A DNA stretch of 64,000 nt from Thermodesulfovibrionales bacterium (GCA_049302065.1 JBAQLU010000249.1:18539-82538); one strand, 5' to 3'. Counted from the first letter of the stretch, positions 19,205 through 54,114 are shown. The notes: generated by a model not told the origin, from the letters alone. A program made the numbers and translations.

Positions 19205-19846
19205 TTAAAATAATGAACCGATAGACTCCCTTACTACCTTCCCGGCAGCTTCACTCAGTGAAGGTCCTTCTGAACCAAAATGTCTGGTCCAGAAGTCAGG
19301 GCCGCCGGTTGTATGACGCACCGACCAGACAATATTTCCTGAATTTACCTCAATCATTCTTAAATTTATGGTAACCTCCGGATAACTGACCGAAATACCC
19401 CTGCCTGTCCCGAATGCCTCTACAGATCCTAATATTACTGCTTCTACATTTAAAGCTTTTCCGATCTCCTGGATTTCTGAAACTTTTACAGATCCGAGGG
19501 ACTTGATCTTCATTTCCCTAAAAAGTCTTGTTACCTCACCCGGCTCAATCACATCAACATCCCTTGAAAGAAGTTCTGTAATTGCTATTCTCCTTATCTT
19601 TTCACCAGCATAATCATCCTGAGTAAAGTTTTCAAAAGGTAAAATAGCTACTTTTTTGACGCTTTCAACATCAGTTTTTGGACGGACAAAATGTGTGGGT
19701 CCACATCCTTGTATAAAAAACAGCAAAAAACATATGGCATAGAGCATAGAGCATAGAGCTAATCCCCCCACCCCCCCTTTTGTAAAGGGGGGTAAGGGGG
19801 GATTAACGTATAGAGTTTTTTTCATTTTGTTCTTTGCTATTTTCAT
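19205..19846 (-). CDS. Small lipoprotein, paralog of 18568..19149
   Basis: 213-aa ORF with lipobox IQGC and motifs VAILPFENFTQDDYAG and GGPDFWTRHFGSEGPSLSEA. The N-terminal ~33 codons run through a heptamer array and a GC palindrome. The true start is uncertain (ATG at 19846, 19825 or 19747). Confidence 0.6.
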   Translation of the reverse strand: MKIAKNKMKKTLYVNPPLPPFTKGGVGGLALCSMLYAICFLLFFIQGCGPTHFVRPKTDVESVKKVAILPFENFTQDDYAGEKIRRIAITELLSRDVDVIEPGEVTRLFREMKIKSLGSVKVSEIQEIGKALNVEAVILGSVEAFGTGRGISVSYPEVTINLRMIEVNSGNIVWSVRHTTGGPDFWTRHFGSEGPSLSEAAGKVVRESIGSLF

Positions 19847-22216: not shown

Positions 22217-22282
22217 GCTCTTTTTCCTTTGCTCTTAGCTCTTAGCTCATTGCTCATTGCTCTTTGCTCATTGCTCTTCGCT
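22167..22282 (-). repeat. Heptamer-array hairpin with the OMP start codon in the loop (arm 22167-22210, loop tttcat = ATGAAA, arm 22217-22282)
   Basis: The sequence reads agcataaagcatagagcgaagagcatagagcgaagagcatagag tttcat gctctttttcctttgctcttagctcttagctcattgctcattgctctttgctcattgctcttcgct. Confidence 0.85.
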
Positions 22283-30342: not shown

Positions 30343-30396
30343 GTAGCCGCAGGCTTTAGCCTGCGTTGTTTGGCGCAGCCTAAAGGCTGCGGCTAC
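30343..30396. repeat. Structured REP-like palindrome (outer stem GTAGCCGC/GCGGCTAC enclosing two small hairpins), copy 1
   Basis: The sequence reads gtagccgc aggctttagcct gcgttgtttggcgc agcctaaaggct gcggctac. A second copy is at 39675-39728. Confidence 0.8.
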
Positions 30397-36114: not shown

Positions 36115-36178
36115 TCTGTCATTCTGGCTTGTCCAGAATCCTTCTGAAGAAAGATTCCCGACAAGCGGGAATGACAGA
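36115..36178. repeat. REP-like long hairpin (GTCATTC...GAATGAC family)
   Basis: The sequence reads tctgtcattctggcttgtccagaatc cttctgaagaaa gattcccgacaagcgggaatgaca ga. It lies between the ferredoxin gene and NuoF-like copy 2. Confidence 0.75.
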
Positions 36179-36229
36179 CGAGTGTCCTTATTAATGACCG
36201 CATTATTAACTCGTCAAATCTATATTTCC

Positions 36230-36823
36230 CTAAACCTTAACCTCAGCCTCAGCCTTAGCCTTTACATCTACTATCTCGATCGCCCCGGTTGGGCATACAT
36301 TAATACATTCACCGCATTTGGTACATCTCTTCAGTCTTATTTCAAAAGGCAGATAACCGCTGAGATACGGTTTTCTCTTTTCCCCGATAATCGCATCATA
36401 TTTACAGACAACCTTACATTCACCGCATATGATACATTTTTCAGGATCAATTCTGTACTCTATAAAGGCAAAGCATTCCTTTTCACGGCATACACCTTCT
36501 ACGTGATTATAAAAGTCATCCGTATCCATCCACCCAAGGATAAACTTTGCCGTGTCTTTACCTTTCTTGCACCGGGAGGCTTCGATCATCCCATGCGCAA
36601 TCCGCTTAAGAGCAAAAAAATCATCTTTCGTACCTCTACCGGACAAAATCTCCTTGAGCCTTATTTTTGCCTCGTAGGCGCCAAATGAGCATGGAAAGCA
36701 CTTTCCACACATGGGATCTGCAAGAAACTGCTCTATATAATACATTGCCTTTTGAACGGGACAACGCTTCTCTTCCGCCTCATTTTTTATGTCTTCCACC
36801 TTTACCTCTTTGTGATCTGACAT
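36230..36823 (-). CDS. Iron-sulfur protein: NuoF-C-terminal-like 4Fe-4S module plus 2x[4Fe-4S] ferredoxin domain
   Basis: 197-aa ORF. MCGKCFPCSFGAYEA resembles the NuoF ESCGxCxPCR cluster motif. CIICGECKVVC and CTKCGECINVCP are classic ferredoxin motifs. Confidence 0.75.
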   Translation of the reverse strand: MSDHKEVKVEDIKNEAEEKRCPVQKAMYYIEQFLADPMCGKCFPCSFGAYEAKIRLKEILSGRGTKDDFFALKRIAHGMIEASRCKKGKDTAKFILGWMDTDDFYNHVEGVCREKECFAFIEYRIDPEKCIICGECKVVCKYDAIIGEKRKPYLSGYLPFEIRLKRCTKCGECINVCPTGAIEIVDVKAKAEAEVKV

Positions 36824-39659: not shown

Positions 39660-39674
39660 TGTGCCTCCAAAATT

Positions 39675-39728
39675 GTAGCCGCAGGCTTCAGCCTGCGATA
39701 ATACACGCACCCTAAAGGGTGCGGCTAC
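39675..39728. repeat. Structured REP-like palindrome, copy 2 (same family as 30343-30396)
   Basis: The sequence reads gtagccgc aggcttcagcct gcgataatacacgc accctaaagggt gcggctac. It fills the cooS-nuoE-like intergenic gap. Confidence 0.8.
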
Positions 39729-39729
39729 A

Positions 39730-41715
39730 CTAATAAATTCCGATATGCGGTTTTGCTGCCCTTTCAATTTCGCGGCGTGCAGCCATATCCATGAGGACCC
39801 TTTCGGCACCGAATTTTCCGGGTTCATACTTTTTCAGTTTCAGTGCCTCCCTCGCCTCATCGATATATTTGAGAGTAAGATCGAGGATTTTTTCAGGATC
39901 CGGCTCAAAGTGAAGTGCTCCCTTGAACCGTTCAAGCCACACCTCCGTTATGATCTTCGTTACTTCTTCACTTGCTCCAACCGGGGACTCACCACCAAAT
40001 ATGACGGGAACACCTGAGGCTGCAAAATAGCAACCGATAGCAATAGCCTTTTCACTCATCCATTCAGGAGCGATACCAACAGCCGGCATCCCACCTATCT
40101 CGTCAGAAAGCCCCCCTTCTTCAGCCATAGCGGTTACTATGGTCAAAATCCTCGAATTATCCACACATGAACCAACGTGAAGGATTGGAGGAATACCTAT
40201 TGCCTCACAAACTTCCTTTAATCCAGGCCCTGCATTCTCCAATGCCATCTCAGGTGTCAGATACCCGGCAGTACTACACGCAGCAGAGCCACAGCCGGTA
40301 GAAACGACCAGTACATCATGCTTGATCAATTCGAGTGCAAGAAAACGGTGAAGTCCCTGCGAAGGGACCCTTGGATTATCACAACCTGCAAGGCCAACAA
40401 CCCCTCGAATTCTCCCTGCTATAATCGCATCATTGAGCGGTCTGAACGATGCCCTCCAAGAACCACCCTGCATGTATTCGATATATTCGTGCGAAAACCC
40501 TGCTATTAACGGAAACTTATCTGAAATATGGCTACCTTCTGCTTTTCTGTTGGCATAGTTGTCAATAGCGAGCTTGACAATCTCCCGAGCGATTTCTTTT
40601 GCTCTATGCTCATCATATTGAATATGAATAGCGCCTGGGATTTTTGCTTTATAAGAAGTAGTTATTACCTTTGTATGGAACTTTTTTGAAAGTTCTGCTA
40701 TAGCAGGCATTATGCACTGCACATCAACTGTTATTGCATCAACAAGTCCTGTCAAAATTGCCAGTTCCTGATTTGTAAAACCTCCTGCCGTTGGAATGCC
40801 GTGCCTCATCAACAATTCATTTGCAGTACAACACATTCCCCCAAGATTGATGCCTTTTGCACCTTTTGATTTCGCATATTCGATCATCTCCGGTTCATTG
40901 ACTACATTTACGATTACCTCTGCCAGTGAAGGCTCATGTCCATGAACCACGAGGTTGACTTCATCTTCTTTGAATATTCCAAAACCTGCCTCTGCCTTTA
41001 CAGGTTTAGGAGTTCCAAAGAGGATATCGGTAATATCTGACGAGATCATGGACCCGCCCCACCCATCAGCGAGGGAAACCTTGAGCGCACTCAGAAGAAG
41101 ATTGTCAGGGTCATGGTCAACACCCATGTTCGTACGGTGCATTGACTCTGCTATTTCTCGATCTATGCCTCTTGGAGTTATCCCCCACTTCTTCCACCTT
41201 TCCTGCGTCTTCTTGGGCGCCCGTTTTATATAATTCAGCTCACCTTTCTGACGTCTGAAATCCTCAAGGAGTTTCATTGCTACATCCCTGGCAACATCAT
41301 TGACAGAACGACCTTCGAACTCTATTTCAAGGATTCCTGCGATCTTATATAGCTTTTTTACATCGGTTATCCTAAAATCACTTGCTTCTCCATTTGCAAC
41401 TGCAAGTAATGTAAAAGCCATATCCCGAGCGTGGTCTGAATGTGCTGCTGCACCTGCTACAGCCATTCGCACAAGATTTCTTGAAGCAACTGTCGGGAGC
41501 GTTGCTCCACATACCCCCCTTGCTTCCTCCTCTGCGTTCTGGCCAACAAACCTGCATGGTCCTATATGGCATGTCCTGCAACATGCACCACTAGATCCGA
41601 TAGGGCACGGTTTCATTTTTTGTGCCCTGTCAAAGCACGTCTCTATCTCTTGGGATTCGCTCCACTCGATAATCTTCTCTGCAGCCTCGTTTGCACTTTT
41701 TATAATCTTATCCAT
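39730..41715 (-). CDS. cooS: Anaerobic Ni-Fe carbon monoxide dehydrogenase catalytic subunit
   Basis: 661-aa ORF. It has the N-terminal cluster motifs CPIGSSGACCRTCHIGPCR and GVCGA and is collinear with the CooS/AcsA family. It sits directly downstream of acsB. Confidence 0.9.
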   Translation of the reverse strand: MDKIIKSANEAAEKIIEWSESQEIETCFDRAQKMKPCPIGSSGACCRTCHIGPCRFVGQNAEEEARGVCGATLPTVASRNLVRMAVAGAAAHSDHARDMAFTLLAVANGEASDFRITDVKKLYKIAGILEIEFEGRSVNDVARDVAMKLLEDFRRQKGELNYIKRAPKKTQERWKKWGITPRGIDREIAESMHRTNMGVDHDPDNLLLSALKVSLADGWGGSMISSDITDILFGTPKPVKAEAGFGIFKEDEVNLVVHGHEPSLAEVIVNVVNEPEMIEYAKSKGAKGINLGGMCCTANELLMRHGIPTAGGFTNQELAILTGLVDAITVDVQCIMPAIAELSKKFHTKVITTSYKAKIPGAIHIQYDEHRAKEIAREIVKLAIDNYANRKAEGSHISDKFPLIAGFSHEYIEYMQGGSWRASFRPLNDAIIAGRIRGVVGLAGCDNPRVPSQGLHRFLALELIKHDVLVVSTGCGSAACSTAGYLTPEMALENAGPGLKEVCEAIGIPPILHVGSCVDNSRILTIVTAMAEEGGLSDEIGGMPAVGIAPEWMSEKAIAIGCYFAASGVPVIFGGESPVGASEEVTKIITEVWLERFKGALHFEPDPEKILDLTLKYIDEAREALKLKKYEPGKFGAERVLMDMAARREIERAAKPHIGIY

Positions 41716-41731
41716 AAAACCTCCAAAATCT

Positions 41732-41812
41732 AATCAGGATTTGAGGAGTCAAGGGGCCCAGGGTTCAAGTGTTCATTTCTCTTTTAACTCGAAACCTTGA
41801 ATCCTTGACCAC
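41732..41812. repeat. Inverted short-repeat array (CAAGG-type units) in the acsB-cooS intergenic gap
   Basis: The sequence reads aatcaggatttgaggagtcaaggggcccagggttcaagtg ...loop... ctcgaaaccttgaatccttgaccac. Confidence 0.75.
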
Positions 41813-41818
41813 TATTCT

Positions 41819-44017
41819 TTATAAAATCGGTTCCATTTCCAATGCCGGATGTCCGGCGCTGGCGAGGAACTCGAGTAATTTCTCGGAATCTTCACATACG
41901 GTCTCATCAGCAATCTTGGCTAAAAGGTCCGGCACCCCTTCCTCGGCTGCTCTCTTATCAAAAGCTTCTTTAAGGCTTTCTTTCAGATTTTTGGTCATCC
42001 AGACAATTCTCTTAATCCCTCCATCACCGGCAAGAAATTTCTTGCTGACAATAAAAATCCTGCCAACGCCCATAAATCCGGGGTTTTGGGTGCCTCCACC
42101 TACAGTTCCCGCTAATGTAGAAAACTTCATCCCTGCAGGTGTCATTCCGGTATGACCGCGGTTAACGATCATTACACCATTAGCTTCCGGAATGATCGCT
42201 ACGATACACTCGAAGCAGCCGCATGAGGTCATGGGATTCTCCATAATCGTATAAAGGTTCAACGTCTCTAACGCACCGCCTGATGCCTTTTTGAGATATT
42301 CATCGATACCGGTATACCTCCCGTATTTTGTATCGATAAGGTCTCCCTTGAGTATGGGCTGGTTCCCTCCTGTTGGGTCTATCTCAAAGGCCGCCTTACA
42401 GTCGAGCCAGTTATATGCTCCACAGAGACCGAGACGTTCGGGGCTGATGACGCAAACATGACTCGGAGCAAAGGACTGGCAGAGAAGACAGGAATAAAAT
42501 GTGTCCACCGCATCGTCGACAAGTCCGCCCAGTCTCCGGTCGCGTTCTTTGTATGCCGCCCTCGCCTCCTCCTGCAATCTCAGCACATCTTTCTCATCGG
42601 TATAGATCGTCACCTGAACCTTATCCACAATCGACTTGAACCTGTGGTGTGTCATCGTAGCATTGAGTATTCCGAGATGCTCAAGGGTGAATCCGTCCTT
42701 TTTTGCGTTTTGGTTGATCCTTATCCAGTTGATATCGCGCTGGCCCATGTGCCAGATGCCCTGGGCCTCATTGATATTATGATGCACTTTCCTTTCTATG
42801 ACAGACTCAAAATCCTTCTGCATCTTTCTGCCTGCCACATCAATGACAATGGCCAAAGGCATCTTCCCGCCTTTCTCATACTGTTCCTGCCAGTTATTGC
42901 CAATCAGGGTGACCTTGCCATCCTCGATATCTTCCATTTCACGCATCCTTACCCACTCAAACGAAGGGGTACGCGCACCACCGAATTCTATGAACATATC
43001 TTCTTTCCGTATCCGCTCACCTTCGAATGCCGGGCCGTAGGAAACGGGTATAGGAGGTTTATCAACAACGATTTTCAAACCCCTCACCTCTATCGCCTTC
43101 TGAACAATCTTATTATGGTCAAATTCTTTATCGACCGCTTCATAAATACACACACCTGTCGGATGTATAACCGGAACATCAGTATCACAAATAGCAGGAA
43201 AGCCCATATTTATAGCGCCGGCTCCTGTTGACCATTTAATGTCATCAAAATCTCCGAGGGCAATTGCAAATGCAAAGACCCTATCTTTTTGGTACTTTAG
43301 ATGCTCCTTAAAATCTCCTGGTTTTTTGCCTCCAAATATAAGTGACGCCCTTATCGCCCAATCAAGGGCGTAAAGGGTATGTTCCGTATCAGGACCGAGG
43401 GGGACGATTCTTGTATCCCAGCCCAGTTCAACACCTTTTCTCTGAAGCTGTTTCGTTACACTATTACCATTGGTGTGGCCTGAAAGAAAGGTAAGGATAT
43501 TCTTCTCCTGAAGTTCTCGTATTATCTTTACTGCAGTATCATCATCAGGCGCTGCTCCGATAACTGCAGCAAAACCCGGCATTGTCCCATCGACAAGCTG
43601 GATGCCCAGATTCCTCTGAATAGTATCTGTTACAAAACCATTATAGACATATCCTGTTTCAGGATCTGTTACAGGTTCAAGGCCATTTATATAACGTAAT
43701 GCCATGATAATCTCTTCAGCAAAGAGCGTAGCCATCCCTGAATCAAGTGCTTCACCCAAATATGGTTTCCAGAGGTGTTCCTCAGGTTCCGGATGGAGTA
43801 ATTCTCTTGCCATACCGAGAGCCACCTTCATATCCGACAGCGTTTTAACAGGAAAACCTGTCATGGCATATATCATGGGAAGATAATATGCTGTATCAGG
43901 GAATTCAAATGGAAAACTTAATCCCTTTTCAGTAATAGTTTTTTCGAGCATTTCCTCAGCCTGCCTGACAAGCCTGTGTGCGCCTCTTATAGCTGCTGAG
44001 GCTATTAACTTAGACAT
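41819..44017 (-). CDS. acsB: CO-methylating acetyl-CoA synthase (ACS, A-cluster subunit)
   Basis: 732-aa ORF. It has the A-cluster motif region ...MTSCGCFECIVAI... and is AcsB/CdhC-like over its full length. Confidence 0.9.
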   Translation of the reverse strand: MSKLIASAAIRGAHRLVRQAEEMLEKTITEKGLSFPFEFPDTAYYLPMIYAMTGFPVKTLSDMKVALGMARELLHPEPEEHLWKPYLGEALDSGMATLFAEEIIMALRYINGLEPVTDPETGYVYNGFVTDTIQRNLGIQLVDGTMPGFAAVIGAAPDDDTAVKIIRELQEKNILTFLSGHTNGNSVTKQLQRKGVELGWDTRIVPLGPDTEHTLYALDWAIRASLIFGGKKPGDFKEHLKYQKDRVFAFAIALGDFDDIKWSTGAGAINMGFPAICDTDVPVIHPTGVCIYEAVDKEFDHNKIVQKAIEVRGLKIVVDKPPIPVSYGPAFEGERIRKEDMFIEFGGARTPSFEWVRMREMEDIEDGKVTLIGNNWQEQYEKGGKMPLAIVIDVAGRKMQKDFESVIERKVHHNINEAQGIWHMGQRDINWIRINQNAKKDGFTLEHLGILNATMTHHRFKSIVDKVQVTIYTDEKDVLRLQEEARAAYKERDRRLGGLVDDAVDTFYSCLLCQSFAPSHVCVISPERLGLCGAYNWLDCKAAFEIDPTGGNQPILKGDLIDTKYGRYTGIDEYLKKASGGALETLNLYTIMENPMTSCGCFECIVAIIPEANGVMIVNRGHTGMTPAGMKFSTLAGTVGGGTQNPGFMGVGRIFIVSKKFLAGDGGIKRIVWMTKNLKESLKEAFDKRAAEEGVPDLLAKIADETVCEDSEKLLEFLASAGHPALEMEPIL

Positions 44018-44030
44018 CCCGACCTCCTAT

Positions 44031-44140
44031 ATAATCAGAATACAGAACTCAGAATACAGAGCACAGATTACAGAACACAGATTTTAATTTCTTATTAGAC
44101 TTCTTTGGTCTATGCTCTGTGTTCTGTCTTCTGTGATCTC
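44031..44140. repeat. Inverted heptamer arrays (CAGANNN x7 / NNNTCTG x4) in the acsC-acsB intergenic gap
   Basis: The sequence reads cagaata cagaact cagaata cagagca cagatta cagaaca cagattt ...loop... tctatgc tctgtgt tctgtct tctgtga tct. Confidence 0.85.
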
Positions 44141-44146
44141 TTTAAT

Positions 44147-45490
44147 TTATGCTGCTCTCGATTTCAGGAATGCAGGCAACCCGTTTGCTTCCCGGGGACC
44201 GACTGTTATCTTCCATCCCTCAAGTTTATCTTCTATTGCTCCGCTCAGTATCGAAACATAACCAGGGATAATAAGCTCCCGGTGTTTTATATTGTTCTCA
44301 ACTCCGCTTTCTTTAATAAATTGTGCGATCTTTGATGCTGTAAATTTCCCTGCTGCCCATGCTGTAAGCACAGACAGGCCTTCGCAGTCCATGACAGCGA
44401 GATAACCCGGCACCCTGCTGTTTTCAATCTCACCGGAGACGATAAAATATGTAAGTGAGAAGTTTGTTGTAATCATGAGCGGCGATTCCGGATTCGGCTC
44501 TCCTATCTTATATATCTTTTGCTCGACCTGCATCGGCACCTGGGGGTCTGTGTAGATATTCTGTCTTAAGGTGAACAGAGAAAGATTCTTCCATTTTTCT
44601 ATACTGCTCAGGACGACTATTGAAGAATATTTTGCGACACCTATGGATGCAATAAGTGATTCAACAAGACTGTCTTCACGCTGTGCAAAAGTTATCACCG
44701 GATATCCGAGAGGCTTAAAATTCTTCTTGACAGCAGCCCTCCTGATTAATGTATTGTGCTCTAAAATTTCCTTCGCCTTTCTTGCGCCGGAATCCATTAC
44801 CATATCTTCAACACCGAGTGATTTGATCTTTTCAGTAAGGTTAGCAAGTTCATCCAGCCCATTCGCCATAATCCCGAGTGCTGTTTTATATGTCTTTGCA
44901 ATGCCTGTCATTGCTTCTGCATTTTCTGAATTCACTCCGTAAATGACTGGTTTCTTGTTTGAGAATATTATTGCTGCGGTCTCGGCAGACCGGGGGTCTG
45001 TCGCGCAGATAATAACAGGGACTTCAGGCGCCTTTGCCGCAACAGTTTTTGCAAGAGACTCAAATCTGCCTGTATCATTTGAAGTATTCTTCAGTGCAAT
45101 TGCATCAATCCTCAGCTTCTGACCTACCCTGTCGATCTCAGAATCAAGAACCTCCTTAATCTTAAGATCGATTTCAGAATCCGAAAGCGTATCCTGTATC
45201 TCAAGCGCAAAAACACACGGATTGACAAAACGCTTGTCATGCCTGAAAAGCACTGTCTCTTCTCCGAGTTTGACTGCCTTCTCACCTGTCCCCATGATAA
45301 TTGGTCTTACAGGCGGAGCTGAGGCCTCACCGAGTTTCTGTTTTGCCTCTTCAGAGACATCAGGACATGCGTCAAGAGTTACCTGTCTCTGAGCAAGTTT
45401 CATAGCAAAGGCAAGACAGGTAGGGAAGCCGCATTTCTTACAATTTGTCTTTGGCAGGAGTTTGAATATTTCTACACCGGTTAAAGCCAT
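44147..45490 (-). CDS. acsC: Corrinoid iron-sulfur protein, large subunit
   Basis: 447-aa ORF. The N-terminus MALTGVEIFKLLPKTNCKKCGFPTCLAFAMKLA carries the characteristic 4Fe-4S motif of AcsC/CdhE. Confidence 0.9.
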   Translation of the reverse strand: MALTGVEIFKLLPKTNCKKCGFPTCLAFAMKLAQRQVTLDACPDVSEEAKQKLGEASAPPVRPIIMGTGEKAVKLGEETVLFRHDKRFVNPCVFALEIQDTLSDSEIDLKIKEVLDSEIDRVGQKLRIDAIALKNTSNDTGRFESLAKTVAAKAPEVPVIICATDPRSAETAAIIFSNKKPVIYGVNSENAEAMTGIAKTYKTALGIMANGLDELANLTEKIKSLGVEDMVMDSGARKAKEILEHNTLIRRAAVKKNFKPLGYPVITFAQREDSLVESLIASIGVAKYSSIVVLSSIEKWKNLSLFTLRQNIYTDPQVPMQVEQKIYKIGEPNPESPLMITTNFSLTYFIVSGEIENSRVPGYLAVMDCEGLSVLTAWAAGKFTASKIAQFIKESGVENNIKHRELIIPGYVSILSGAIEDKLEGWKITVGPREANGLPAFLKSRAA

Positions 45491-45509
45491 TTCTAAACCT
45501 CCAAGATCT

Positions 45510-45600
45510 AAAGGATTCCAGGATTTAAGTGGTCAAGGGTTCAAGCGATTAAACTTTCATTTATATGAACCCTCGAATCCTTGAATCCTCGACCCCTTAT
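45510..45600. repeat. Inverted short-repeat array (CAAGG-type) in the acsD-acsC intergenic gap
   Basis: The sequence reads aaaggattccaggatttaagtggtcaagggttcaagcg ...loop... gaaccctcgaatccttgaatcctcgaccccttat. Confidence 0.8.
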
Positions 45601-45610
45601 GTTTTTCAGC

Positions 45611-46552
45611 TTAAGTCAGTTCTTCTATTACTTTTTCCACTGCATCGATTGCCTTTGGGTGTCTCATGATGAGAAGCTCAGTTCCAGCCATAAGCAGGGC
45701 CATGGCAGTAGTTGCCTCCCATGCTATACCTCTTTCTTCCAGACTTCCCCATTGCGGGACATCTGATTCAGCAGCCTGGGTCTCCTTAACCTTCCAGACG
45801 TACATGCCTACATCACCCAGCAGCGGCTGCTGCATGGTAGAATCATTCTGTGTAAGCGCAGCAAGCCGTATCCGCTCCATAACCGAATACGTATATTCAA
45901 GACCATACCCGAGAGCAGAACACATAGGGTCTGTAATGATTCTTTCTTTATCAAACCCCATCTGTGAAATAAGAATATTCAGCTGCTTCGAGAGGTTGAT
46001 ATCAAGCTCTGACATTGCGATCAGTTTATGGTTGTTAGCCATTGCAGCAGCAGCGATCGTCTTATAATTCGCTTCCTGTGCTTTGCCGATAATACAATTC
46101 CTGTCTTTGGCAGCCTCTGCTGCAGAGATTAAAACAGAAGCATCTTTCTCTGCGTGATTGCTTCCAAGAATAATCAGGGGGAGATCAGTCGCTGAAATTA
46201 CATCCCTGACGGTTTTTGCTGCGTCTTCCGGTGAGCGATTCTCTCTGTCGGGGTGCGTACCTGTGAGCCTGAGTGCGATAGCCTTTGCCTTTAATGTTTC
46301 CTGACAGAATTTGGCCCATGAGACAGGATTATGCGATACATCCTTATAAGGCTTCTGTACTTCCTCAGGCCAGTCATCCGGTGGAACATCCTGTATTTCG
46401 CAGGCTATAACCGGACTGTTTGGCGATGAACCTTCAAAGGTATGGAATGGAAGAACATTTTCACCCCCGAAGGTAAGCGCCCGGGGACCGGTACCGATTG
46501 TTACAGAATAGACCTTACCTGAATAAGTTTCTTTCGGCAGTGCCAAAGCCAT
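45611..46552 (-). CDS. acsD: Corrinoid iron-sulfur protein, small subunit
   Basis: 313-aa ORF of the size and position expected for AcsD/CdhD, between acsE and acsC. A good SD (GGAGGAG) precedes the ATG. Confidence 0.8.
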   Translation of the reverse strand: MALALPKETYSGKVYSVTIGTGPRALTFGGENVLPFHTFEGSSPNSPVIACEIQDVPPDDWPEEVQKPYKDVSHNPVSWAKFCQETLKAKAIALRLTGTHPDRENRSPEDAAKTVRDVISATDLPLIILGSNHAEKDASVLISAAEAAKDRNCIIGKAQEANYKTIAAAAMANNHKLIAMSELDINLSKQLNILISQMGFDKERIITDPMCSALGYGLEYTYSVMERIRLAALTQNDSTMQQPLLGDVGMYVWKVKETQAAESDVPQWGSLEERGIAWEATTAMALLMAGTELLIMRHPKAIDAVEKVIEELT

Positions 46553-46570
46553 GTCTCCTCCTTTACATTT

Positions 46571-46641
46571 AAGGATTCAAGGGGCCAAGGGGTCAAGGGG
46601 TCGGGAGTTTTTTTACTTGAACCCTCGAATCCTTGAACCCT
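46571..46641. repeat. Inverted short-repeat array (CAAGGGGN units) in the acsE-acsD intergenic gap
   Basis: The sequence reads aaggattcaaggggccaaggggtcaaggggtcggg agttttttta cttgaaccctcgaatccttgaaccc. Confidence 0.85.
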
Positions 46642-46646
46642 ATCTG

Positions 46647-47429
46647 TTACATTTCTAAGTACGAATGGGCATACAGTGTTTTACCCAGCAGCACATCTAT
46701 CGTTTTAACTGTTGGTGATATCTCATGCGCATCTGCTATCGCAGCAGTAAGACCTTCATAGATTAAGAGAGAAAGATAATAATTGTTCAGGACAGGTCTC
46801 AGGTGTTTCGGGCAGCCATTTGAGACATTACTGAGACCAACAACCGTTTTCATAGGCGGATCATTCAGTTCCTGAAACATCTTTACTGCCTTTATGACCT
46901 TTAATGCATGGTCCTGGGAAGTCGCTATCTGAAGGACAAGAGGGTCGAGGAATAAATCTTCGAGCGGCACTCCATATTCTGCAGCCCTTGCCATGATATC
47001 CGCAGCAATGGCAGCCCTTTCTTCTGCATCTGCAGGCAATCCACCCTTGCCTACTGTAAGGCCGATTATCTGAGAATTATATCTGGCTGCAAGTTCAAGC
47101 ATTGCAAATCTCTCAGGATCATTTGATGTAGAATTTATCAAAGGCCTCCCCCATTGATTGTTATGAATTTGGAGACCGGCCTCTACCGCTTTATAGTTTG
47201 TTGTATCAAGACAAACCGGCAGCGGGACAACCTCCTGTATGGCAGTAACCATCCATTGCATCAAATCCTCACCGCCATCTTCAGCCGGTCCTATGTTAGC
47301 GTCTATCATCCCTGCGCCTGATTTCCATTGAGAAATTGCGATATCCTGTATAGGGCCTTTATCTTTTCTCATCATGGCTTCCCTTACTTTTTTTGCTATT
47401 ATGCTTAACTTTTCACCGATGATTAACAT
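46647..47429 (-). CDS. acsE: Methyltetrahydrofolate:corrinoid/iron-sulfur protein methyltransferase
   Basis: 260-aa ORF. The N-terminus MLIIGEKLSIIAKKVREAMMRKD...DANIGPA resembles the Moorella AcsE N-terminus as I remember it (MLIIGERING...LDLNVGPA). It has a pterin-binding-domain pattern. Confidence 0.88.
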   Translation of the reverse strand: MLIIGEKLSIIAKKVREAMMRKDKGPIQDIAISQWKSGAGMIDANIGPAEDGGEDLMQWMVTAIQEVVPLPVCLDTTNYKAVEAGLQIHNNQWGRPLINSTSNDPERFAMLELAARYNSQIIGLTVGKGGLPADAEERAAIAADIMARAAEYGVPLEDLFLDPLVLQIATSQDHALKVIKAVKMFQELNDPPMKTVVGLSNVSNGCPKHLRPVLNNYYLSLLIYEGLTAAIADAHEISPTVKTIDVLLGKTLYAHSYLEM

Positions 47430-47736: not shown

Positions 47737-47785
47737 ATCTTTTTAAGATATTAAGTAAGTATTCTTGGAAGGAGGTGATATTTTT

Positions 47786-47971
47786 ATGAAGAAGATTATA
47801 GCATTAGTTTTATCATTAATGTTATTGGTGGCATTTACCGTTGGTTGCAAGCCGGCAGAAACACCAAAACCTGAGGCACCAGCACCGGCACCGGCAACAG
47901 CACCAGCACCGGAGAAGCCAGCTGAGGCACCAGCACCGGCACCAGCACCGGAGAAACCAGCACATAAATAA
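47786..47971 (+). CDS. Small Pro/Ala-rich lipoprotein
   Basis: The sequence is MKKIIALVLSLMLLVAFTVGC (lipobox VGC) followed by PEAPAPAPATAPAPEKPAEAPAPAPAPEKP. A strong SD (GGAAGGAGGTG) precedes the ATG at 47786, and a terminator follows. Confidence 0.6.
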   Translation: MKKIIALVLSLMLLVAFTVGCKPAETPKPEAPAPAPATAPAPEKPAEAPAPAPAPEKPAHK

Positions 47972-47984
47972 TTTATGTGTAGAT

Positions 47985-48130: not shown

Positions 48131-48586
48131 ATGAACGACAGTATTAAGAAAAAGGTTTTTATGTTTGCTGAACAAGTTGCTGATGAGCAGGGTGTAGAAA
48201 TTTTCGATATTGAGCTGTTAGGAAAGGGGAAGCTGTTGCTCAGAGTCAGAATAGATAGAGAGGGAGGCGTTACTCTCGATGACTGTGAAAATTTCAGCAG
48301 AGCTTTTGGGGCTCTGCTCGATGTCGGAGACATTTTCCCCGGGCGATATAACCTTGAGGTTTCTTCTCCTGGAATCGACAGACCTTTGAGAAGCTTACAG
48401 GAGTTTGAAAAACATAAGGGAAAACTGGCACGAATTGTTACCGTGGAAAAAATTAATAATCAGAATTTCTTCACCGGCAGGATATCAGCAGTCAGCAGCA
48501 ATTTTGTAAAAATCCTGGTGAACAACCAGGAAATAGATATACCATTTGACAGGATATCAAAGGCAAAACTGGAGATAGAGATCTAA
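48131..48586 (+). CDS. rimP: Ribosome maturation factor RimP
   Basis: The sequence is ...GVEIFDIELLGKGKLLLRVRIDREGGVTLDDCENFSRAFGALLD...YNLEVSSPGIDRPL. This is the conserved RimP pattern, immediately upstream of nusA. I prefer the ATG at 48131 to the track's non-ATG start at 48083. Confidence 0.85.
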   Translation: MNDSIKKKVFMFAEQVADEQGVEIFDIELLGKGKLLLRVRIDREGGVTLDDCENFSRAFGALLDVGDIFPGRYNLEVSSPGIDRPLRSLQEFEKHKGKLARIVTVEKINNQNFFTGRISAVSSNFVKILVNNQEIDIPFDRISKAKLEIEI

Positions 48587-49674
48587 TGTCCAAAGAACTC
48601 TGTTATGTAGTAGACCAGATCAGCAGAGAGAAAGGTATAACAAGAGATGTGCTTCTTGAAACCTTACGCTCCGCCTTGCTCTCCGCTGCAAGGAAAAAGT
48701 TCGGTGGCAGAACGAATATCGACCTCACAATTGATCCCAGGACATGTGATATATCAGCATTTGAGATAAAAAAGATTGTGTCAGTGGTATCAAATAAAGA
48801 TGAAGAAATTTCCCTTGATAAGGCAAGAAAGATTTCTCCTGAGGCAGCAGAGGGTGATACAGTCAATATTCCCTTAGATCTGCATGACTTCAGCAGAATC
48901 GCCGCCCAAACAGCAAAACAGGTTATTTTTCAGAGGGTACGCGAGGCGGAAAGGGATGTAATTTACAATGAATTCAAGGGCAAGGTCGGTCAGGTTGTCG
49001 GTGGTACAATCATGAGAAAAGAAAAAGGAATATACTTCCTGAATATCGGCAAAACAGAGGCATTACTTCCGGTAAAAGATATCCTTCCGAATGAAAACCT
49101 GAAGAGAGGCGACACGATCAGGGCATATATAGAAGCCGTCAGGATTACCCCAAGGGGACCGGCTATTATGGTGACAAGGTCAAGCCCGCAATTTGTTGCT
49201 GCCTTATTCAAAATGGAGGTTCCGGAAATCAATGACGGACTTGTTATTATTAAAGATACTGTCAGAGAACCCGGTGAGAGGACAAAACTCGCTGTATTTT
49301 CAAAAAATCCGTCTATTGATCCAGTAGGCGCATGTGTCGGTATGAAAGGTACAAGGGTTCAGTCAATAGTTCGTGAACTCAGGGGAGAAAGGATCGATAT
49401 CATCCCATGGACTGATGACCCAAGACAGCTTGTTTCGAGGGCGCTGAGCCCGGCAACAGTGGACAAAGTAGGAATTAATGAAGAATCCAAGACAGCGATG
49501 GTTGTTGTGAATGACCAGCAACTTTCCCTCGCTATAGGCAAAAGAGGTCAGAATGTCAGACTTGCGATGAAACTTACAGGCTGGGATATCGATATACTTA
49601 GTGAATCCGAATATTCCAAGATGCGCATAGAAGAAGCAGACAAGACATTCTCTCCTCCTTCTGCTGATGGCTAA
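48586..49674 (+). CDS. nusA: Transcription termination/antitermination factor NusA (short form, no acidic C-terminal repeats)
   Basis: 362-aa ORF with the N-terminal domain, S1 domain and two KH domains (GACVGMKGTRVQSIVRELRGERIDII; AIGKRGQNVRLAMKLTGWDIDI). Confidence 0.92.
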   Translation: MSKELCYVVDQISREKGITRDVLLETLRSALLSAARKKFGGRTNIDLTIDPRTCDISAFEIKKIVSVVSNKDEEISLDKARKISPEAAEGDTVNIPLDLHDFSRIAAQTAKQVIFQRVREAERDVIYNEFKGKVGQVVGGTIMRKEKGIYFLNIGKTEALLPVKDILPNENLKRGDTIRAYIEAVRITPRGPAIMVTRSSPQFVAALFKMEVPEINDGLVIIKDTVREPGERTKLAVFSKNPSIDPVGACVGMKGTRVQSIVRELRGERIDIIPWTDDPRQLVSRALSPATVDKVGINEESKTAMVVVNDQQLSLAIGKRGQNVRLAMKLTGWDIDILSESEYSKMRIEEADKTFSPPSADG

Positions 49675-51757
49675 AGACCTATCAGATTTTCAAATCCAAT
49701 ATATAAAAGGCGTAGGACCTCACAGGGCAAAACTTCTCAACCGGCTCGGTATTCAATCAGTTAAAGACGCTCTCTATTACCTTCCTTACAGATATGAAGA
49801 CAGAAGTAATATCAAAAAAATCAGCGACCTCACATACGGCAATCTTGAAACCGCATATGGAAAAGTAATTTCTGCTGAAGTCATCAAATTGCCGGGCAGG
49901 AACCTGAAGATATTTGAGCTCACCGTTAACGACGGCAGCGCTCTTTTAAAGGGCAAATGGTTCAATCAGCCTTTTATGAAAAAGAACTTCAAGACAGGGC
50001 AGGAAGTTTTGCTCTGCGGAACTGTCAGGAGAAATCCTTACCAGGGAATCGGACTCGAGATGGACAACCCTGAGTACGAGATCATCAGTAATGCCGGTGA
50101 TTCTTTTATTCATATGAACAGAATTGTTCCTGTATACAGGGTGACCAGTGGTCTTACCTCAAGACAGATGCGGTCAATAATGCACAACATGGTACATACC
50201 TGTATTAAGGATGTCTGCGAGACAATACCCGGAGAGATTCTGAAAAGGCACGCATTGCCGGATATCTCCGCAAGTCTTGCACAGGTCCACTTCCCTGAAA
50301 TAAATGTCGATGTCGAACTTCTCAACAGGGGAGCGACTGAATTTCATAAAAGGCTCTCGTTTGATGAGCTTTTTATGCTCGAGCTCGGCCTTGCCGCACT
50401 GAAAAAGGGAAACGTACTCGAGAAAGGAATCGCTTTTAATCCTGACAGAAGGCTTTTGAAACAACTCCTCAGCATACTTCCATTCAGATTGACCGGCGCC
50501 CAGGAGAGAGTCTTCAATGACATACTGATTGATATGAAAAGGCCCCACCCTATGAACAGGCTCATACAAGGTGATGTTGGTTGCGGGAAGACTGTTGTTG
50601 CATTGATGGCGATGATGATAGCAGCCGAATGCGGTTATCAATCAGCCCTCATGGCGCCCACAGAAATACTCGCAGAACAGCACTTCATTAATATATACAG
50701 GGTCGTAGAGGATATGGGTTTGAAAATCTGTATTTTGACAGGAAGCAAAAAAGAAAGGCCCCTCGACAGTATTGCTTCAGGAGAGATTGATCTGATTGTC
50801 GGAACCCATGCCCTGATACAGGAAGGAGTGGTATTCAAAAACCTCGGCCTTGCCATCATAGATGAACAACACCGGTTTGGTGTCATGCAGAGGGCATTGC
50901 TCAAGAAAAAGGCAATGAACCCTGATGTCCTTGTCATGACAGCAACTCCTATACCGAGGACACTTGCACTTACACTTTATGGTGACCTCGATTACTCTGT
51001 TATCGACGAACTGCCTCCTGACAGAAGACCTGTGACTACTCTTTTGTTTCATGAAAAACAGAAGGAATCTATCTACCGTCTTATCAGAGAAGAAGTACAA
51101 AAGGGAAGACAGGTTTATGTGGTTTATCCGGTCATCGAGGAATCTGAAAAGACTGATCTAAGGTCAGCAACAACAGGCAAGAGCGCCCTGGAAAAACTGT
51201 TTCCTGAATTCAGGATAGGTCTCATTCACGGCAGAATGAAGCCACAGGAAAGAGAAAATATCATGGCATCTTTTAAACAGGGAGAGATGGATATACTTGT
51301 AAGTACGACGGTAATTGAGGTCGGCGTAGACGTGCCAAATGCCACACTTATGATTATAATACATGCAGAGAGGTTTGGCCTCTCACAGCTTCATCAGCTG
51401 AGGGGAAGGATTGGCAGGGGAGCATATCAATCATATTGTATATTGCTGGCATATGAACACTACGGAGATGAAGCGCGCAGAAGACTTGATATAATGGCAA
51501 AGAGCAATGACGGTTTCAGGATAGCCGAAGAAGACCTGAATATCAGGGGGCCCGGAGAATTCTTCGGAACCCGTCAATCCGGCATTCCGGACCTGAGAAT
51601 TGCAAATATTGTCAGAGATGCTATACTCCTGAATGAAGCAAGGAAAGAGGCCTTTACCTTAATTGACAAAGACCCGGACCTTAAGGGATATCCCCTCCTG
51701 AGGGAATCTCTCGAGAATTTCTGGGCAGGAAAGATCGAACTCTTCAAGACCGGTTGA
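49667..51757 (+). CDS. recG: ATP-dependent DNA helicase RecG
   Basis: 696-aa ORF with an N-terminal wedge domain. Helicase motifs are GDVGCGKT, DEQHRFG, MTATPIPRT and LHQLRGRIGRG. Confidence 0.92.
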   Translation: MAKDLSDFQIQYIKGVGPHRAKLLNRLGIQSVKDALYYLPYRYEDRSNIKKISDLTYGNLETAYGKVISAEVIKLPGRNLKIFELTVNDGSALLKGKWFNQPFMKKNFKTGQEVLLCGTVRRNPYQGIGLEMDNPEYEIISNAGDSFIHMNRIVPVYRVTSGLTSRQMRSIMHNMVHTCIKDVCETIPGEILKRHALPDISASLAQVHFPEINVDVELLNRGATEFHKRLSFDELFMLELGLAALKKGNVLEKGIAFNPDRRLLKQLLSILPFRLTGAQERVFNDILIDMKRPHPMNRLIQGDVGCGKTVVALMAMMIAAECGYQSALMAPTEILAEQHFINIYRVVEDMGLKICILTGSKKERPLDSIASGEIDLIVGTHALIQEGVVFKNLGLAIIDEQHRFGVMQRALLKKKAMNPDVLVMTATPIPRTLALTLYGDLDYSVIDELPPDRRPVTTLLFHEKQKESIYRLIREEVQKGRQVYVVYPVIEESEKTDLRSATTGKSALEKLFPEFRIGLIHGRMKPQERENIMASFKQGEMDILVSTTVIEVGVDVPNATLMIIIHAERFGLSQLHQLRGRIGRGAYQSYCILLAYEHYGDEARRRLDIMAKSNDGFRIAEEDLNIRGPGEFFGTRQSGIPDLRIANIVRDAILLNEARKEAFTLIDKDPDLKGYPLLRESLENFWAGKIELFKTG

Positions 51758-52074
51758 AGGAGACCATGATAAAGAGACTAAAAACTAATTTCGACACCGG
51801 AGTAGAAAAGATAAAGTGGTTTTCATCGATACTCTCGGACAGACTGAAGATAGAGTTTTCCTTAATAAAACTGCTCTATCAGTCAGATCAGCTTGAGAAA
51901 AAAAGAGATGAACTGATGAAAAACATAGGCCGTCGGGTTTATGAGCTGAAAGAAACATCTGATAGGTCCATACTTAAAGACAGAGTCATCATGGATGCCC
52001 TGAATGAGATCGCAAAGATCGACAGTGATATAGAATCGACCAAAAAGAAGGCCTCAGAAATAAGCAGCACGTAA
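51754..52074 (+). CDS. Hypothetical coiled-coil protein
   Basis: 106-aa ORF whose start overlaps the recG stop. I recognise no motif. Confidence 0.45.
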   Translation: MKETMIKRLKTNFDTGVEKIKWFSSILSDRLKIEFSLIKLLYQSDQLEKKRDELMKNIGRRVYELKETSDRSILKDRVIMDALNEIAKIDSDIESTKKKASEISST

Positions 52075-52087
52075 GCTATTCTGAATA

Positions 52088-52864
52088 ATGCAGAATATAA
52101 TTCCATATATAATATTTTTTATATTTGGTTCTGCTATTGGTTCATTTCTGAATGTATGCATTTACAGACTGCCCAGAAATCTCTCAATAATCTCACCGTC
52201 TTCACGGTGTCCTTCATGCAATATCCCAATAAAACCCTATGATAATATCCCAATGCTAAGCTATATCTTTCTTGGCGGCAGATGCAGGGTATGCAAGGCC
52301 GGGATATCACTCAGATATCCACTGGTCGAGACTCTGAATGCATTGCTTTATGTATTCGTCTTATGGAGGTTCGGTTTCGGGTTGCAGACTATCGTCTATT
52401 CCATGTTTTGTTCTGGGCTTATTGTAATAACCTTCATTGATCTGGACTTTCAGATAATCCCTGACAGAATTACCCTTCCGGGGATATTGATAGGACTTAT
52501 TACAGGATCATTCCTGATGCCTGACCCGTTTATGAGGTATTCTCTCCTTGGAATAAAGGCATCTATCATCGGGTTATTGGCCGGCGGAGGACTCTTCTAT
52601 GCTATAGCTGTTCTCAGCAGGGGTGGAATGGGCGGCGGGGACATAAAGATGATGGCAATGGTCGGCTCCTTAATGGGATGGAAATCTGTACTTCTGACAA
52701 CATTTCTCGGCAGTCTGTCCGGGGCTGTCCTGGGAATATTCCTCATGATTGCTAAGGGCAAAGGCCGGAAGACCAAGGTTCCATTCGGACCATTTCTTGC
52801 CCTCGGCACACTGATTACGCTCTTTTACGGTCAGGAAATACTTTACTGGTATTTTAACAGATGA
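52088..52864 (+). CDS. pilD: Prepilin peptidase / N-methyltransferase (peptidase A24)
   Basis: 258-aa polytopic ORF with the N-terminal CPSC...C..C zinc motif (SSRCPSCNIPI...GGRCRVC) and the catalytic-Asp regions FIDLDFQIIPD and GGGDIKMMAMVG. Confidence 0.88.
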   Translation: MQNIIPYIIFFIFGSAIGSFLNVCIYRLPRNLSIISPSSRCPSCNIPIKPYDNIPMLSYIFLGGRCRVCKAGISLRYPLVETLNALLYVFVLWRFGFGLQTIVYSMFCSGLIVITFIDLDFQIIPDRITLPGILIGLITGSFLMPDPFMRYSLLGIKASIIGLLAGGGLFYAIAVLSRGGMGGGDIKMMAMVGSLMGWKSVLLTTFLGSLSGAVLGIFLMIAKGKGRKTKVPFGPFLALGTLITLFYGQEILYWYFNR

Positions 52865-54114
52865 ATAATTCGTTGGATACCGGAATAATATTTTTCTATT
52901 CGATCCTGTTCCTTATTGTACTCATCATTCTTTTATATCTCATCAGGCTGTTCATCGGCTTTTACCGGACAAGTAAAAATCTGAAACAAAAGGACGCATC
53001 TCAGGTCGGTTTTGTAGTTGATACATTTCATGAACTGGTATCGCAACTAAAAGAAAAAGAGAAAGAACTTGAGATCCTGGGAAAAAAGGCAGAAGACAGA
53101 GCGATAGCAATCGAAGGGTATAATGAAAATATCCTGCAGAGTGTTCCAAGCGGGGTGATCAGCTTTGACCAGGAGATGAGAATAACAAAAATCAATCTCG
53201 CTGCTGAAAAGATACTGGAGGTAAGAGGAGAGAATATTATCGGTGAATATCATACAGATGTATTGAACAAACCGATAATTGATTTTTTAAACGACAGGAA
53301 GATAATTGAAAGAGGTGAGATAGCGTATACAACCCCGTCAGGGAAGAGGATATGGTTAGGTCTCACACTCTCCCCTTTAAAAGACAGGGAGGGCATGATA
53401 ATCGGCCAGATACTCGTTTTTACAGACCTTACCCATCTCAAGGCTGTCGAGTCACAGATAAAGCTCAGAGACAAACTTTCGAGCCTCGGTGAGATATCAG
53501 CAGGGATCGCACATGAGCTCAGAAACCCTATGGGTGTTATTGCAGGGTACACAAAACTACTCTCAAAAAAGGCTGATAACTCTCTCAAACCTACTGTAGA
53601 AGCCATATCAAAGGAAATCGTTGTCATGGACAGGATTATCTCTGATTTCCTCTCTTTCGCAAAACCTGCTGAACTAAATATAGCCAGAAGCAATCTTAAG
53701 GCAATCATAGAAAACTGTGTTGCATCAGTCGCGGTGAAAAGAACAGATATTAGTCTTAATATCGATATAAATGCCCTGCCTGCCCTCAAAGGGGATGAAG
53801 TGCTTTTAAGGCAGGCTTTTATAAACCTTATACAGAATGCTGTCGATGCAATGCCTCAGGGAGGTAATCTGAAGATTAAGGCTTTGCCTTCAACAGGGGA
53901 TTTTATGGATATACTGATATCTGATACAGGTCATGGTATTTCAGAAAATATAAAAGATAAGATCTTTCTTCCATTTTTTACTACCAAAGAACAGGGAACA
54001 GGCCTCGGCCTTGCAATAGTCCACAAGATAGTTATATCTCACGGAGGGAGTATTTCTGTTGACAGCAGTGAGAAAGGAACAACATTCAGCATACGTCTGC
54101 CGTTGAGTAATTAA
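52861..54114 (+). CDS. PAS-domain sensor histidine kinase
   Basis: 417-aa ORF with an N-terminal TM helix, a PAS region, the H-box [11 protein letters not shown], the N-box LIQNAVDAM and the G-boxes DTGHGI and GTGLGLAIV. Confidence 0.88.

Follow-up and report, generated by a model that had tools for sequence, protein, structure and literature searches.

Opposed short-unit arrays forming periodic-arm hairpins in the intercistronic gaps of a Thermodesulfovibrionales acs operon

The acs operon of a Thermodesulfovibrionales bacterium (acsE-acsD-acsC-acsB-cooS, as judged by the likeness of its genes) carries in each of its four intergenic gaps, between positions 41716 and 46646 of the analysed stretch, a stable hairpin with arms formed by two tandem arrays of one short unit that oppose each other. 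The stretch (GCA_049302065.1 JBAQLU010000249.1:18539-82538), which we call the window, is 64,000 nucleotides long, and positions are counted from its first letter. These hairpins most likely belong to a class that is defined by structure and agnostic to sequence, which we term 'periodic-arm' or 'zipper' hairpins, and which is common in the Thermodesulfovibrionales (Nitrospirota). As to why they exist, we tentatively favor the reading that they are repeat hairpins built by slippage and tolerated since their folding loops the insertion out of the messenger, any barrier they pose to mRNA decay being incidental.

Anatomy and folding of the acs hairpins

The five genes of the operon, in the order of transcription, are:

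46647-47429, minus strand: acsE-like gene (Pfam Pterin_bind)
45611-46552, minus strand: acsD-like gene (Pfam CdhD)
44147-45490, minus strand: acsC-like gene (Pfam CdhD+FeS)
41819-44017, minus strand: acsB-like gene (Pfam CdhC/ACS)
39730-41715, minus strand: cooS-like gene (Pfam Prismane)

The gaps that separate them measure 94 (acsE-acsD), 120 (acsD-acsC), 129 (acsC-acsB) and 103 nt (acsB-cooS). A first-pass annotation, made by a model from the sequence alone, had placed two opposed arrays in each of these four gaps at a length of ~95-130 nt, and this description, positions included, holds for all four (94-129 nt). Its wider statement that every gap of the operon is filled in this way stands from acsE to cooS and fails at the next gap (39660-39729, cooS to a nuoE-like gene), which is occupied by a palindrome that is not built of arrays; the two gaps that follow are just 3 and 16 nt long. 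Hairpins are missing from other operons of the window, such as that at 48161-54114, whose gaps measure -8 to 13 nt. The operon layout and a single upstream promoter-like site suggest that the acs spacers are transcribed. The parts of the four hairpins, with arms named as on the mRNA, and the Shine-Dalgarno sites that follow them are:

46616-46641, minus strand: 5' arm in the acsE-acsD gap, three 8-mers GGGUUCAA GGAUUCGA GGGUUCAA
46598-46615, minus strand: loop of the acsE-acsD hairpin
46572-46597, minus strand: 3' arm in the acsE-acsD gap, C-rich 8-mers CCCCUUGA CCCCUUGG CCCCUUGA
46556-46561, minus strand: acsD Shine-Dalgarno GGAGGA, outside the stem, as read from the sequence, with the ATG at 46552
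45566-45598, minus strand: 5' arm in the acsD-acsC gap, four 8-mers GGGGUCGA GGAUUCAA GGAUUCGA GGGUUCA
45544-45565, minus strand: loop of the acsD-acsC hairpin
45511-45543, minus strand: 3' arm in the acsD-acsC gap, CUUGAACC CUUGACCA CUUAAAUC CUGGAAUCC
45498-45502, minus strand: acsC Shine-Dalgarno GGAGG
44116-44139, minus strand: 5' arm in the acsC-acsB gap, heptamers CACAGAA GACAGAA CACAGAG CAUAGAC
44031-44081, minus strand: 3' array in the acsC-acsB gap, seven heptamers (period 7 and 6.6 copies, as scored in the manner of Tandem Repeats Finder, TRF)
44023-44027, minus strand: acsB Shine-Dalgarno GGAGG
41787-41810, minus strand: 5' arm in the acsB-cooS gap, degenerate 8-mers GGUCAAGG AUUCAAGG UUUCGAG
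41771-41786, minus strand: loop of the acsB-cooS hairpin
41747-41770, minus strand: 3' arm in the acsB-cooS gap, CUUGAACC CUGGGCCC CUUGAC
41720-41724, minus strand: cooS Shine-Dalgarno GGAGG

Three of the gaps share one family of 8-mers, GGRTTCRA on the 5' side of the mRNA and TYGAAYCC on its 3' side. The arrays described there by the first-pass annotation are present at all three sites; their units, which it had given as CAAGG(G)-type, are octamers of this family (TRF reports a period of 8 at 46577-46602). The acsC-acsB gap instead holds heptamers of the CAGAACA family, seven units against four opposed ones, a count already given correctly in the first pass. The seven read on the plus strand CAGAATA CAGAACT CAGAATA CAGAGCA CAGATTA CAGAACA CAGATTT, and only those at 44058-44081 pair with the 5' arm, the units at 44031-44057 being surplus. 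Overall, the acs hairpins have a period of 7 or 8, 3-7 units per arm and loops of 16-35 nt. Each is followed by a GGAGG-type Shine-Dalgarno site outside the main stem, and in these gaps the arrays are, as had been proposed, non-coding. To the 3' side of the acsB-cooS hairpin a further small hairpin is predicted, in which CUCC pairs with the cooS Shine-Dalgarno site.

Folded as sense RNA, the cores of the gaps form stable hairpins of -21 to -34 kcal/mol, with z of -2.5 to -7.1 relative to dinucleotide shuffles: -30.6 kcal/mol for acsE-acsD (z -4.7), -34.3 for acsD-acsC (z -4.5), -32.4 for acsC-acsB (z -7.1) and -20.6 for acsB-cooS (z -2.5). The last is the weakest and most degenerate of the four, and its whole gap reaches a z of only -0.9. 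An RNALfold-style scan of the whole window was uninformative, as its local windows cover everything; we used instead an ungapped stem finder combined with a test for arm periodicity, which detects inverted repeats with internally periodic arms. This yields eight periodic-arm hairpins in the 64-kb window, including those of all four acs gaps, as against none in five Markov shuffles, and strict tandem arrays number 18 as against ~0.1 per shuffle. The other four hairpins, built of AGAGCAA/TTGCTCT heptamers, lie in a cytochrome/peptidyl-prolyl isomerase (PPIase) locus and are listed below. Across the window the hairpins draw on at least three unit families, two of which are used by the four acs hairpins. 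A scan of the window for tRNA and tmRNA genes found none.

Distribution, placement and turnover

We located the five acs genes in 80 relatives (Nitrospirota, Thermodesulfovibrionales) and classified their gaps. By its AcsC the window falls in the Nitrospirota, order Thermodesulfovibrionales, and the nearest of these relatives (L001) has an AcsC 97% identical to that of the window, for which an exact-protein look-up returned no record. The gaps of the relatives divide as follows, the remainder being long spacers without a strong hairpin:

acsE-acsD gap: periodic-arm hairpin in 16, plain hairpin in 11, shorter than 40 nt in 19 of 70
acsD-acsC gap: periodic-arm hairpin in 15, plain hairpin in 9, shorter than 40 nt in 36 of 77
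acsC-acsB gap: periodic-arm hairpin in 4, plain hairpin in 18, shorter than 40 nt in 6
acsB-cooS gap: periodic-arm hairpin in 9, plain hairpin in 5, shorter than 40 nt in 16 of 59

Thus, a periodic-arm hairpin is found in 44 of ~280 acs gaps, with differing units. Structured gaps are common among the relatives, the close ones included: of the 191 acs spacers that reach 40 nt or more in them, 52% fold with z < -2, and about half of the longer spacers are without a strong hairpin. Also common are very short gaps, the smallest being of 9-16 nt, and relatives with such short or unstructured gaps suggest that the hairpins would be dispensable for the operon. The units vary both by genome and by gap, with 70 hairpins falling into 37 unit families (e.g. 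CGTGACA, CGTAATG, CAGTGTC, GGGGTTA, GGTTAAG, AGAGCAA and ACGGAGA), and gaps with a hairpin are clustered by genome (p < 0.0002 by permutation). The design is general across the order and not specific to acs. A strict motif census for TTCRAGG clusters was dropped as too narrow.

The placement of these elements is regular to within a few nucleotides. Among 42 acs-gap hairpins, the 5' arm starts at a median of 5 nt after the stop codon (interquartile range 1-6) and the 3' arm ends at a median of 18 nt before the start codon (interquartile range 15-20), with a Shine-Dalgarno motif within the last 22 nt in all 42. For counts of genomic context we removed three false positives, arising from an Ala/Pro coding repeat, and two acs gaps with mis-called neighbors. 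All of the ~63 hairpins that remain lie at same-strand junctions, and none lies at a convergent junction (these make up 11% of junctions and 19.5% of intergenic bases) or at a divergent one. The three rejected 'hairpins' had been called in divergent gaps of L001 and two further relatives (L003 and L011), and represent a (GCACCN)n repeat coding for part of a small Ala/Pro-rich lipoprotein. In the window, the gene for this lipoprotein (~47785-47975, plus strand; TRF repeat at 47875-47964) is divergent from the acs promoter region and was absent from the list of open reading frames (ORFs), which began at 80 aa; it is kept beside acsE in the same three relatives.

Comparison of close strains reveals a rapid turnover of the arrays. 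The genes of the window share 82-96% of their DNA sequence with those of L001, and the gaps 40-75%. Their acsE-acsD gaps are set apart by exactly one unit of 8 nt. Four more alleles, taken from metagenomes (L081-L084), with flanking proteins 95-99% identical except for the AcsC of L083 (85%), extend this picture: among six close strains the 5' arm in this gap has 2, 3 or 5 units. The acsD-acsC gap has three unrelated unit families even at 97-99% identity of AcsD and AcsC. The window uses GGRTTCRA there and L084 uses GGTACA, whereas GGTTGAG/CTTAACC occurs in L001 and also in L083. Likewise, the acsC-acsB gap of close strains is built of CAGAACA, GTAGACA or GGTAGTA heptamers. In the acsB-cooS gap of L001 (at 13633) the hairpin has given way to a C-rich palindrome that is also found at 19760-19805 of the window. 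Separately, we note that DNA identity to L001 is 94-96% for acsE, acsD and acsC, and 82-85% for acsB and cooS; this drop suggests a recombination breakpoint near the acsC-acsB gap.

Origin and possible roles of the hairpins

The unit-wise insertions and deletions, the diversity of units, the anatomy and the strand symmetry of the hairpins together point to an origin by slippage at the level of DNA, with occasional replacement of the cassette, whereas a filter or a use that acts on the transcript is suggested by their placement, by their persistence through such replacement and by their confinement to same-strand junctions. We infer that the two facing arrays of a hairpin, which repeat one unit of 6-9 nt (mostly 7 or 8), would be made and remodelled in DNA by replication slippage, which would gain or lose whole units, the whole cassette being replaced on occasion. 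Pairing in multiple registers would give an imperfect stem of ~20-30 bp that survives point mutations without fine tuning. By looping out the extra 60-100 nt, such a stem would hold the distance from stop codon to ribosome-binding site at ~20-25 nt and leave the Shine-Dalgarno site free, so that a translationally coupled operon would not be harmed by the insertion. Incidentally, the stem should slow 3'-5' exonucleases and offer a substrate for RNase III, and it may thereby stabilise or separate cistrons. A role of this kind in mRNA stability or RNase III processing is plausible; it would nevertheless be a consequence of the hairpins rather than the reason for their existence, and would not be specific to acs.

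Tests for tuning at the level of RNA agree with this picture. The hairpins lack an RNA-strand signature: in the sense-strand stems of periodic hairpins G-U (64) and A-C mismatches (59) are about equally frequent, and the minimum free energies of sense and antisense strands differ by 0.5 kcal/mol (p = 0.58). The best stem score is no lower after the units of one arm have been permuted (mean z 0.03, n = 46), and the two arms do not mirror each other in the order of their units; hence, pairing follows from both arms being runs of one unit and not from position-specific complementarity. Since the availability of several pairing registers makes the stems robust to mutation, the missing covariation is only weak evidence against function.

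Several observations weigh against an origin in slippage and mere tolerance. First, purely neutral slippage should also fill convergent and divergent regions, which make up ~40% of intergenic bases, yet they hold none of the ~63 hairpins. Second, a strong hairpin is present at each junction in every close strain, even where the unit family has been replaced, which looks like selection for structure or the work of an active generator. Third, the G/purine-rich arm is the 5' arm in ~58 of 66 hairpins, which slippage alone does not explain. Fourth, one unit family serves three of the four acs hairpins, implying some spread between gaps beyond slippage. Finally, the frequency per junction is ~4 times higher in the acs operon than in its flanks (21 as against 15 strict matches at 55 loci), although these and the other counts among relatives are phylogenetically non-independent and derive from crude, ORF-based gene calls. 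With regard to the G-rich-first bias, initially seen in 33 of 41 hairpins, among which four minus-strand cases seemed to favor replication, we also considered an effect of transcription or replication and rejected it: the topology is identical when read from either strand, so the bias is uninformative on the direction of both processes.

Some of these observations lend weight to the main rival explanation, a general form of what the first-pass annotation had proposed, under which the hairpins would be selected as mRNA 'punctuation', with exonuclease barriers or protective 5' stems setting the AcsE:AcsD:AcsC:AcsB:CooS ratios via the half-lives of the cistrons. Classically, the REP sequences of Escherichia coli serve to protect upstream mRNA from 3'-5' exonucleases, and the REP hairpins of malEFG provide a precedent for selective RNA processing and stabilisation. 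The acs hairpins are structurally akin to such stabilisers, being stable stem-loops in an intercistronic spacer that is probably transcribed. Stable stems of ~23-30 bp in every acs gap, the limitation to same-strand junctions, the retention at the same junctions of six close strains even after the unit family was replaced, the enrichment in the acs operon over its flanks and the strong folding of many longer acs spacers in relatives all fit punctuation. Nevertheless, there is neither an excess of G-U over A-C nor a preference for folding of the sense strand, and the unmirrored order of units weakens the case for a tuned role in acs, just as the genome-wide and order-wide occurrence of the design weakens that for an acs-specific one. 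Moreover, many relatives run the same operon with gaps that are 9-16 nt long or unstructured, and no such hairpin closes a transcription unit at its 3' end or lies in a convergent gap, places where REP-like stabilisers are common as well. We regard selected punctuation as possible and less likely than slippage with tolerance.

REPs are, in addition, a sequence family: imperfect palindromes of ~35 nt with a GTAG head that are linked to RAYT transposases. The acs hairpins resemble REP/BIME elements as hairpin-forming repeats in transcribed intergenic spacers of operons; they differ in sharing no sequence, in having arms of tandem units and in being unseen in convergent gaps. None of the four bears a GTAG head, and in place of a sequence family there are 37 families among 70 hairpins, with copies of one family within a single genome only 73-77% alike.

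A further alternative is an evolvable rheostat, in which RNase III would cut the stem and slippage would alter its length, and with it the expression of the downstream gene. This has an experimentally established precedent in the 5' untranslated region of hmw1A of Haemophilus influenzae, where a hairpin formed by (ATCTTTC)n is cleaved by RNase III and the number of repeats sets expression (Rapun-Araiz et al., 2025; PMC12721329). Both systems have a transcribed heptamer simple sequence repeat as an arm in a long hairpin that lies upstream of the start codon, and in both the number of units changes, as in the acsE-acsD gap of close strains; the acs stems are also long enough to serve as double-stranded RNA substrates. 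In hmw1A, however, only one arm is a simple sequence repeat, the other being unique and G-rich, and the system is confined to a single virulence locus with phase variation. In the acs hairpins both arms are arrays that pair in any register, so that a change of one unit may barely alter the stem. Enzymes of central metabolism would be odd targets for phase-variable control, and the data at hand support neither cleavage nor an rnc gene. Such a rheostat is improbable.

Less probable still is a translation device, in which the stem, opened by the terminating ribosome, would gate or insulate the next initiation, by coupling or uncoupling translation, or keep Rho from loading. The tight and conserved geometry relative to stop codon and Shine-Dalgarno site, the occurrence of the hairpins only upstream of genes and the additional predicted anti-Shine-Dalgarno hairpin in the acsB-cooS gap fit this idea, as does the G-rich arm being transcribed first, such that the C-rich stretch is never left unpaired. 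Yet the Shine-Dalgarno site is never within the main stem, relatives with 10-nt gaps couple without a hairpin, and the same geometry is to be expected if the stretch from stop codon to Shine-Dalgarno site is simply the only place where insertions are tolerated.

The closest pattern that has been described is that of Xanthomonas, in which paired convergent arrays of the heptamer GGGAATC, capable of forming stem-loops, lie in intergenic regions at 70-75 pairs per genome, keeping their position while varying in length and sequence between close relatives (Rehm et al., 2015; PMC4692102). The acs hairpins share with these the arrangement of two opposed arrays of one ~7-nt unit, close together and intergenic. 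They differ in that Xanthomonas uses a single GGGAATC unit throughout the genome, studied for its G-quadruplexes, whereas here there are at least 37 families, mostly without G-runs, with units of 7 or 8 nt, a strict same-strand placement from stop codon to Shine-Dalgarno site, and some copies translated as signal peptides. The units here are diverse, and G-runs are restricted to some of them, such as CAAGGGG at 46577-46602.

Least probable of the rivals is that the hairpins are miniature mobile elements (REP/REPIN- or MITE-like) or DNA-level sites, be it cruciforms, G-quadruplexes or protein-binding sites: the recurrence of a few unit families at several loci and genomes, the replacement of whole cassettes between close strains, the strand-symmetric quality of pairing, the presence of true REP-like palindromes in the same kind of gap and the GGGG-bearing arm at 46577-46602, which could fold into a G-quadruplex like those proposed for repeats of Xanthomonas and Nostoc (PMC4692102), are offset by the lack across the many families of a shared sequence, a conserved loop, a terminal inverted repeat with target duplication or a GTAG head, by the divergence of copies within one genome, by the scarcity of G-runs and by a same-strand restriction that is unexpected for a DNA-structural site. 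Specifically in regard to MITEs, the tandem arms run right up to the loop, the loops are unrelated, BLAST searches with the gaps recovered no near-identical copies, and alignments of the window with L001 display no target-site duplication.

Other known families were likewise set aside. The window has no match in Rfam 15 at gathering thresholds, and sub-threshold matches (E <= 1) to plant and animal miRNA precursors at 44027-44151 and 45512-45597 were rejected as chance hits of generic long hairpins. A scan for intrinsic terminators called none of the four acs hairpins, which have no T-tail, their 3' arms being followed by A-rich sequence and the Shine-Dalgarno site. Resemblances of the 8-mer to CsrA-binding sites (CAAGGAU) and to the tRNA T-arm were dropped, as the motifs are missing from most unit families. 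Heptanucleotide STRR repeats of cyanobacteria were reportedly described by Mazel and colleagues in 1990; PMC4692102 also mentions them. In Beggiatoaceae, TAACTGA repeats form mostly direct arrays, with one inverted set among 170 in BOGUAY (MacGregor, 2015; PMC4679880). Like the arrays studied here, both are abundant intergenic tandem heptamers, found mostly just upstream of starts and with several units per genome, whose function and spread are unexplained; there, however, direct arrays of a few fixed units prevail, whereas here the opposed, hairpin-forming pair is the rule. The fixed units CCCCAGT, TTGGTCA, CAACAGT and TAACTGA are not present here, though tandem short intergenic units are. 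We found no description of such repeats for Nitrospirota or Thermodesulfovibrio in the literature. What is new in the present case is that the unit families are so many, that the hairpins keep strictly to the interval from stop codon to Shine-Dalgarno site, that near-identical strains have exchanged the units and kept the hairpin, and that arrays are used as coding sequence.

Tandem repeats of ~7 nt are over-represented in many bacteria and are almost unexplained. This lineage offers a clean natural experiment, with hairpins that have only their architecture in common, a placement regular to the nucleotide, and turnover at 97-99% strain identity through which the hairpin persists. If the structure is selected, it would be a simple and evolvable means of setting expression ratios within operons for enzymes of anaerobic carbon fixation and electron transfer, and operon design would gain a part that is ready to use. 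Without such selection, the hairpins would show that the spacers of operons can be filled, and even signal peptides written, by a mutational process; this would affect gene calling, in terms of start codons and N-termini in metagenome-assembled genomes, and would counsel caution in taking 'conserved structure' as evidence of function.

Coding arrays and other repeats of the window

The first-pass annotation had tied the arrays of the acs gaps to coding arrays in the cytochrome locus, a link that is borne out by the same opposed-array construction in the remaining four periodic-arm hairpins of the window:

13555-13681, minus strand: AGAGCAA/TTGCTCT hairpin spanning the start of the multihaem cytochrome gene 12368-13687
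17273-17371, minus strand: hairpin entirely within the part of the parvulin-type PPIase gene (15703-17379) that codes for the signal peptide
22161-22282, minus strand: hairpin with an untranslated 5' arm, Shine-Dalgarno site and ATG in the loop, and a 3' arm encoding MKLYALRSMLFALCFMLFF of the gene 19892-22216
27782-27883, minus strand: hairpin spanning the start of the cytochrome gene 26760-27896

Here the arrays overlap the starts of genes for exported proteins and encode signal peptides. In every frame (AGAGCAA)n reads RAKSKEQ, a charged n-region, and (TTGCTCT)n reads LLFALCS, a hydrophobic core, so that having the purine-rich arm first yields a charged n-region followed by a hydrophobic core. 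The N-terminus of the PPIase, MEIKSKEQRAKSKELRAKSKKFYVLSSMLCALCCLLIFWGGC|ASL, matches the NCBI protein model (558 aa) exactly. In its orthologues the lipobox and the mature N-terminus are kept, and the region before the lipobox is hypervariable and composed of periodic peptides. One may conceive of a sequence-agnostic hairpin that is actively regenerated at the stop-to-start junction, acting as a tunable intercistronic RNA element in cytoplasmic operons and as a generator of hypervariable signal peptides and of mRNA structure at the start codon in genes for exported proteins; we consider this unlikely.

Two further repeats were noted. The C-rich palindrome at 19760-19805 (AATCCCCCCTTACCCCCCTTT / AAAGGGGGGGTGGGGGGATT) reads in frame as NPPLPPFTKGGVGG in the stretch of ORF 19205-19846 that covers the signal peptide; more than 10 PPIase orthologues also show the peptide motif SNPPxPPFSKGGxGG. 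In the start region of ORF 17370-18398, opposed 9-mer arrays GTTTCTTGG / AAACTCAAG lie ~130 nt apart at 18375-18414 and 18544-18566, and the inner one has the minus-strand reading NPMNPRNPRN, a type of peptide that is found in PPIase orthologues too.

The palindrome that fills the gap from cooS to the nuoE-like gene is of a different kind:

39674-39729, minus strand: GTAG-headed composite palindrome, not built of arrays, with an outer stem GTAGCCG/CGGCTAC and two inner hairpins

The window has another copy at 30343-30396, and a further two occur in another relative (L002, at 13636 and 19374); this element is a better candidate for a REP/BIME than the array hairpins. A dispersed palindrome family, GTCATTCC...GGAATGAC, represented in the window at 36115-36178, has 12 copies at 10 loci in intergenic gaps of several relatives. 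Close by, a single unpaired array of 6-7 nt units (36229-36262; CCTAAAC CTTAAC CTCAGC CTCAGC CTTAGCC) lies at the 3' end of ORF 36230-36823, and its unit family is common to the acsD-acsC hairpins of L001 and L083.

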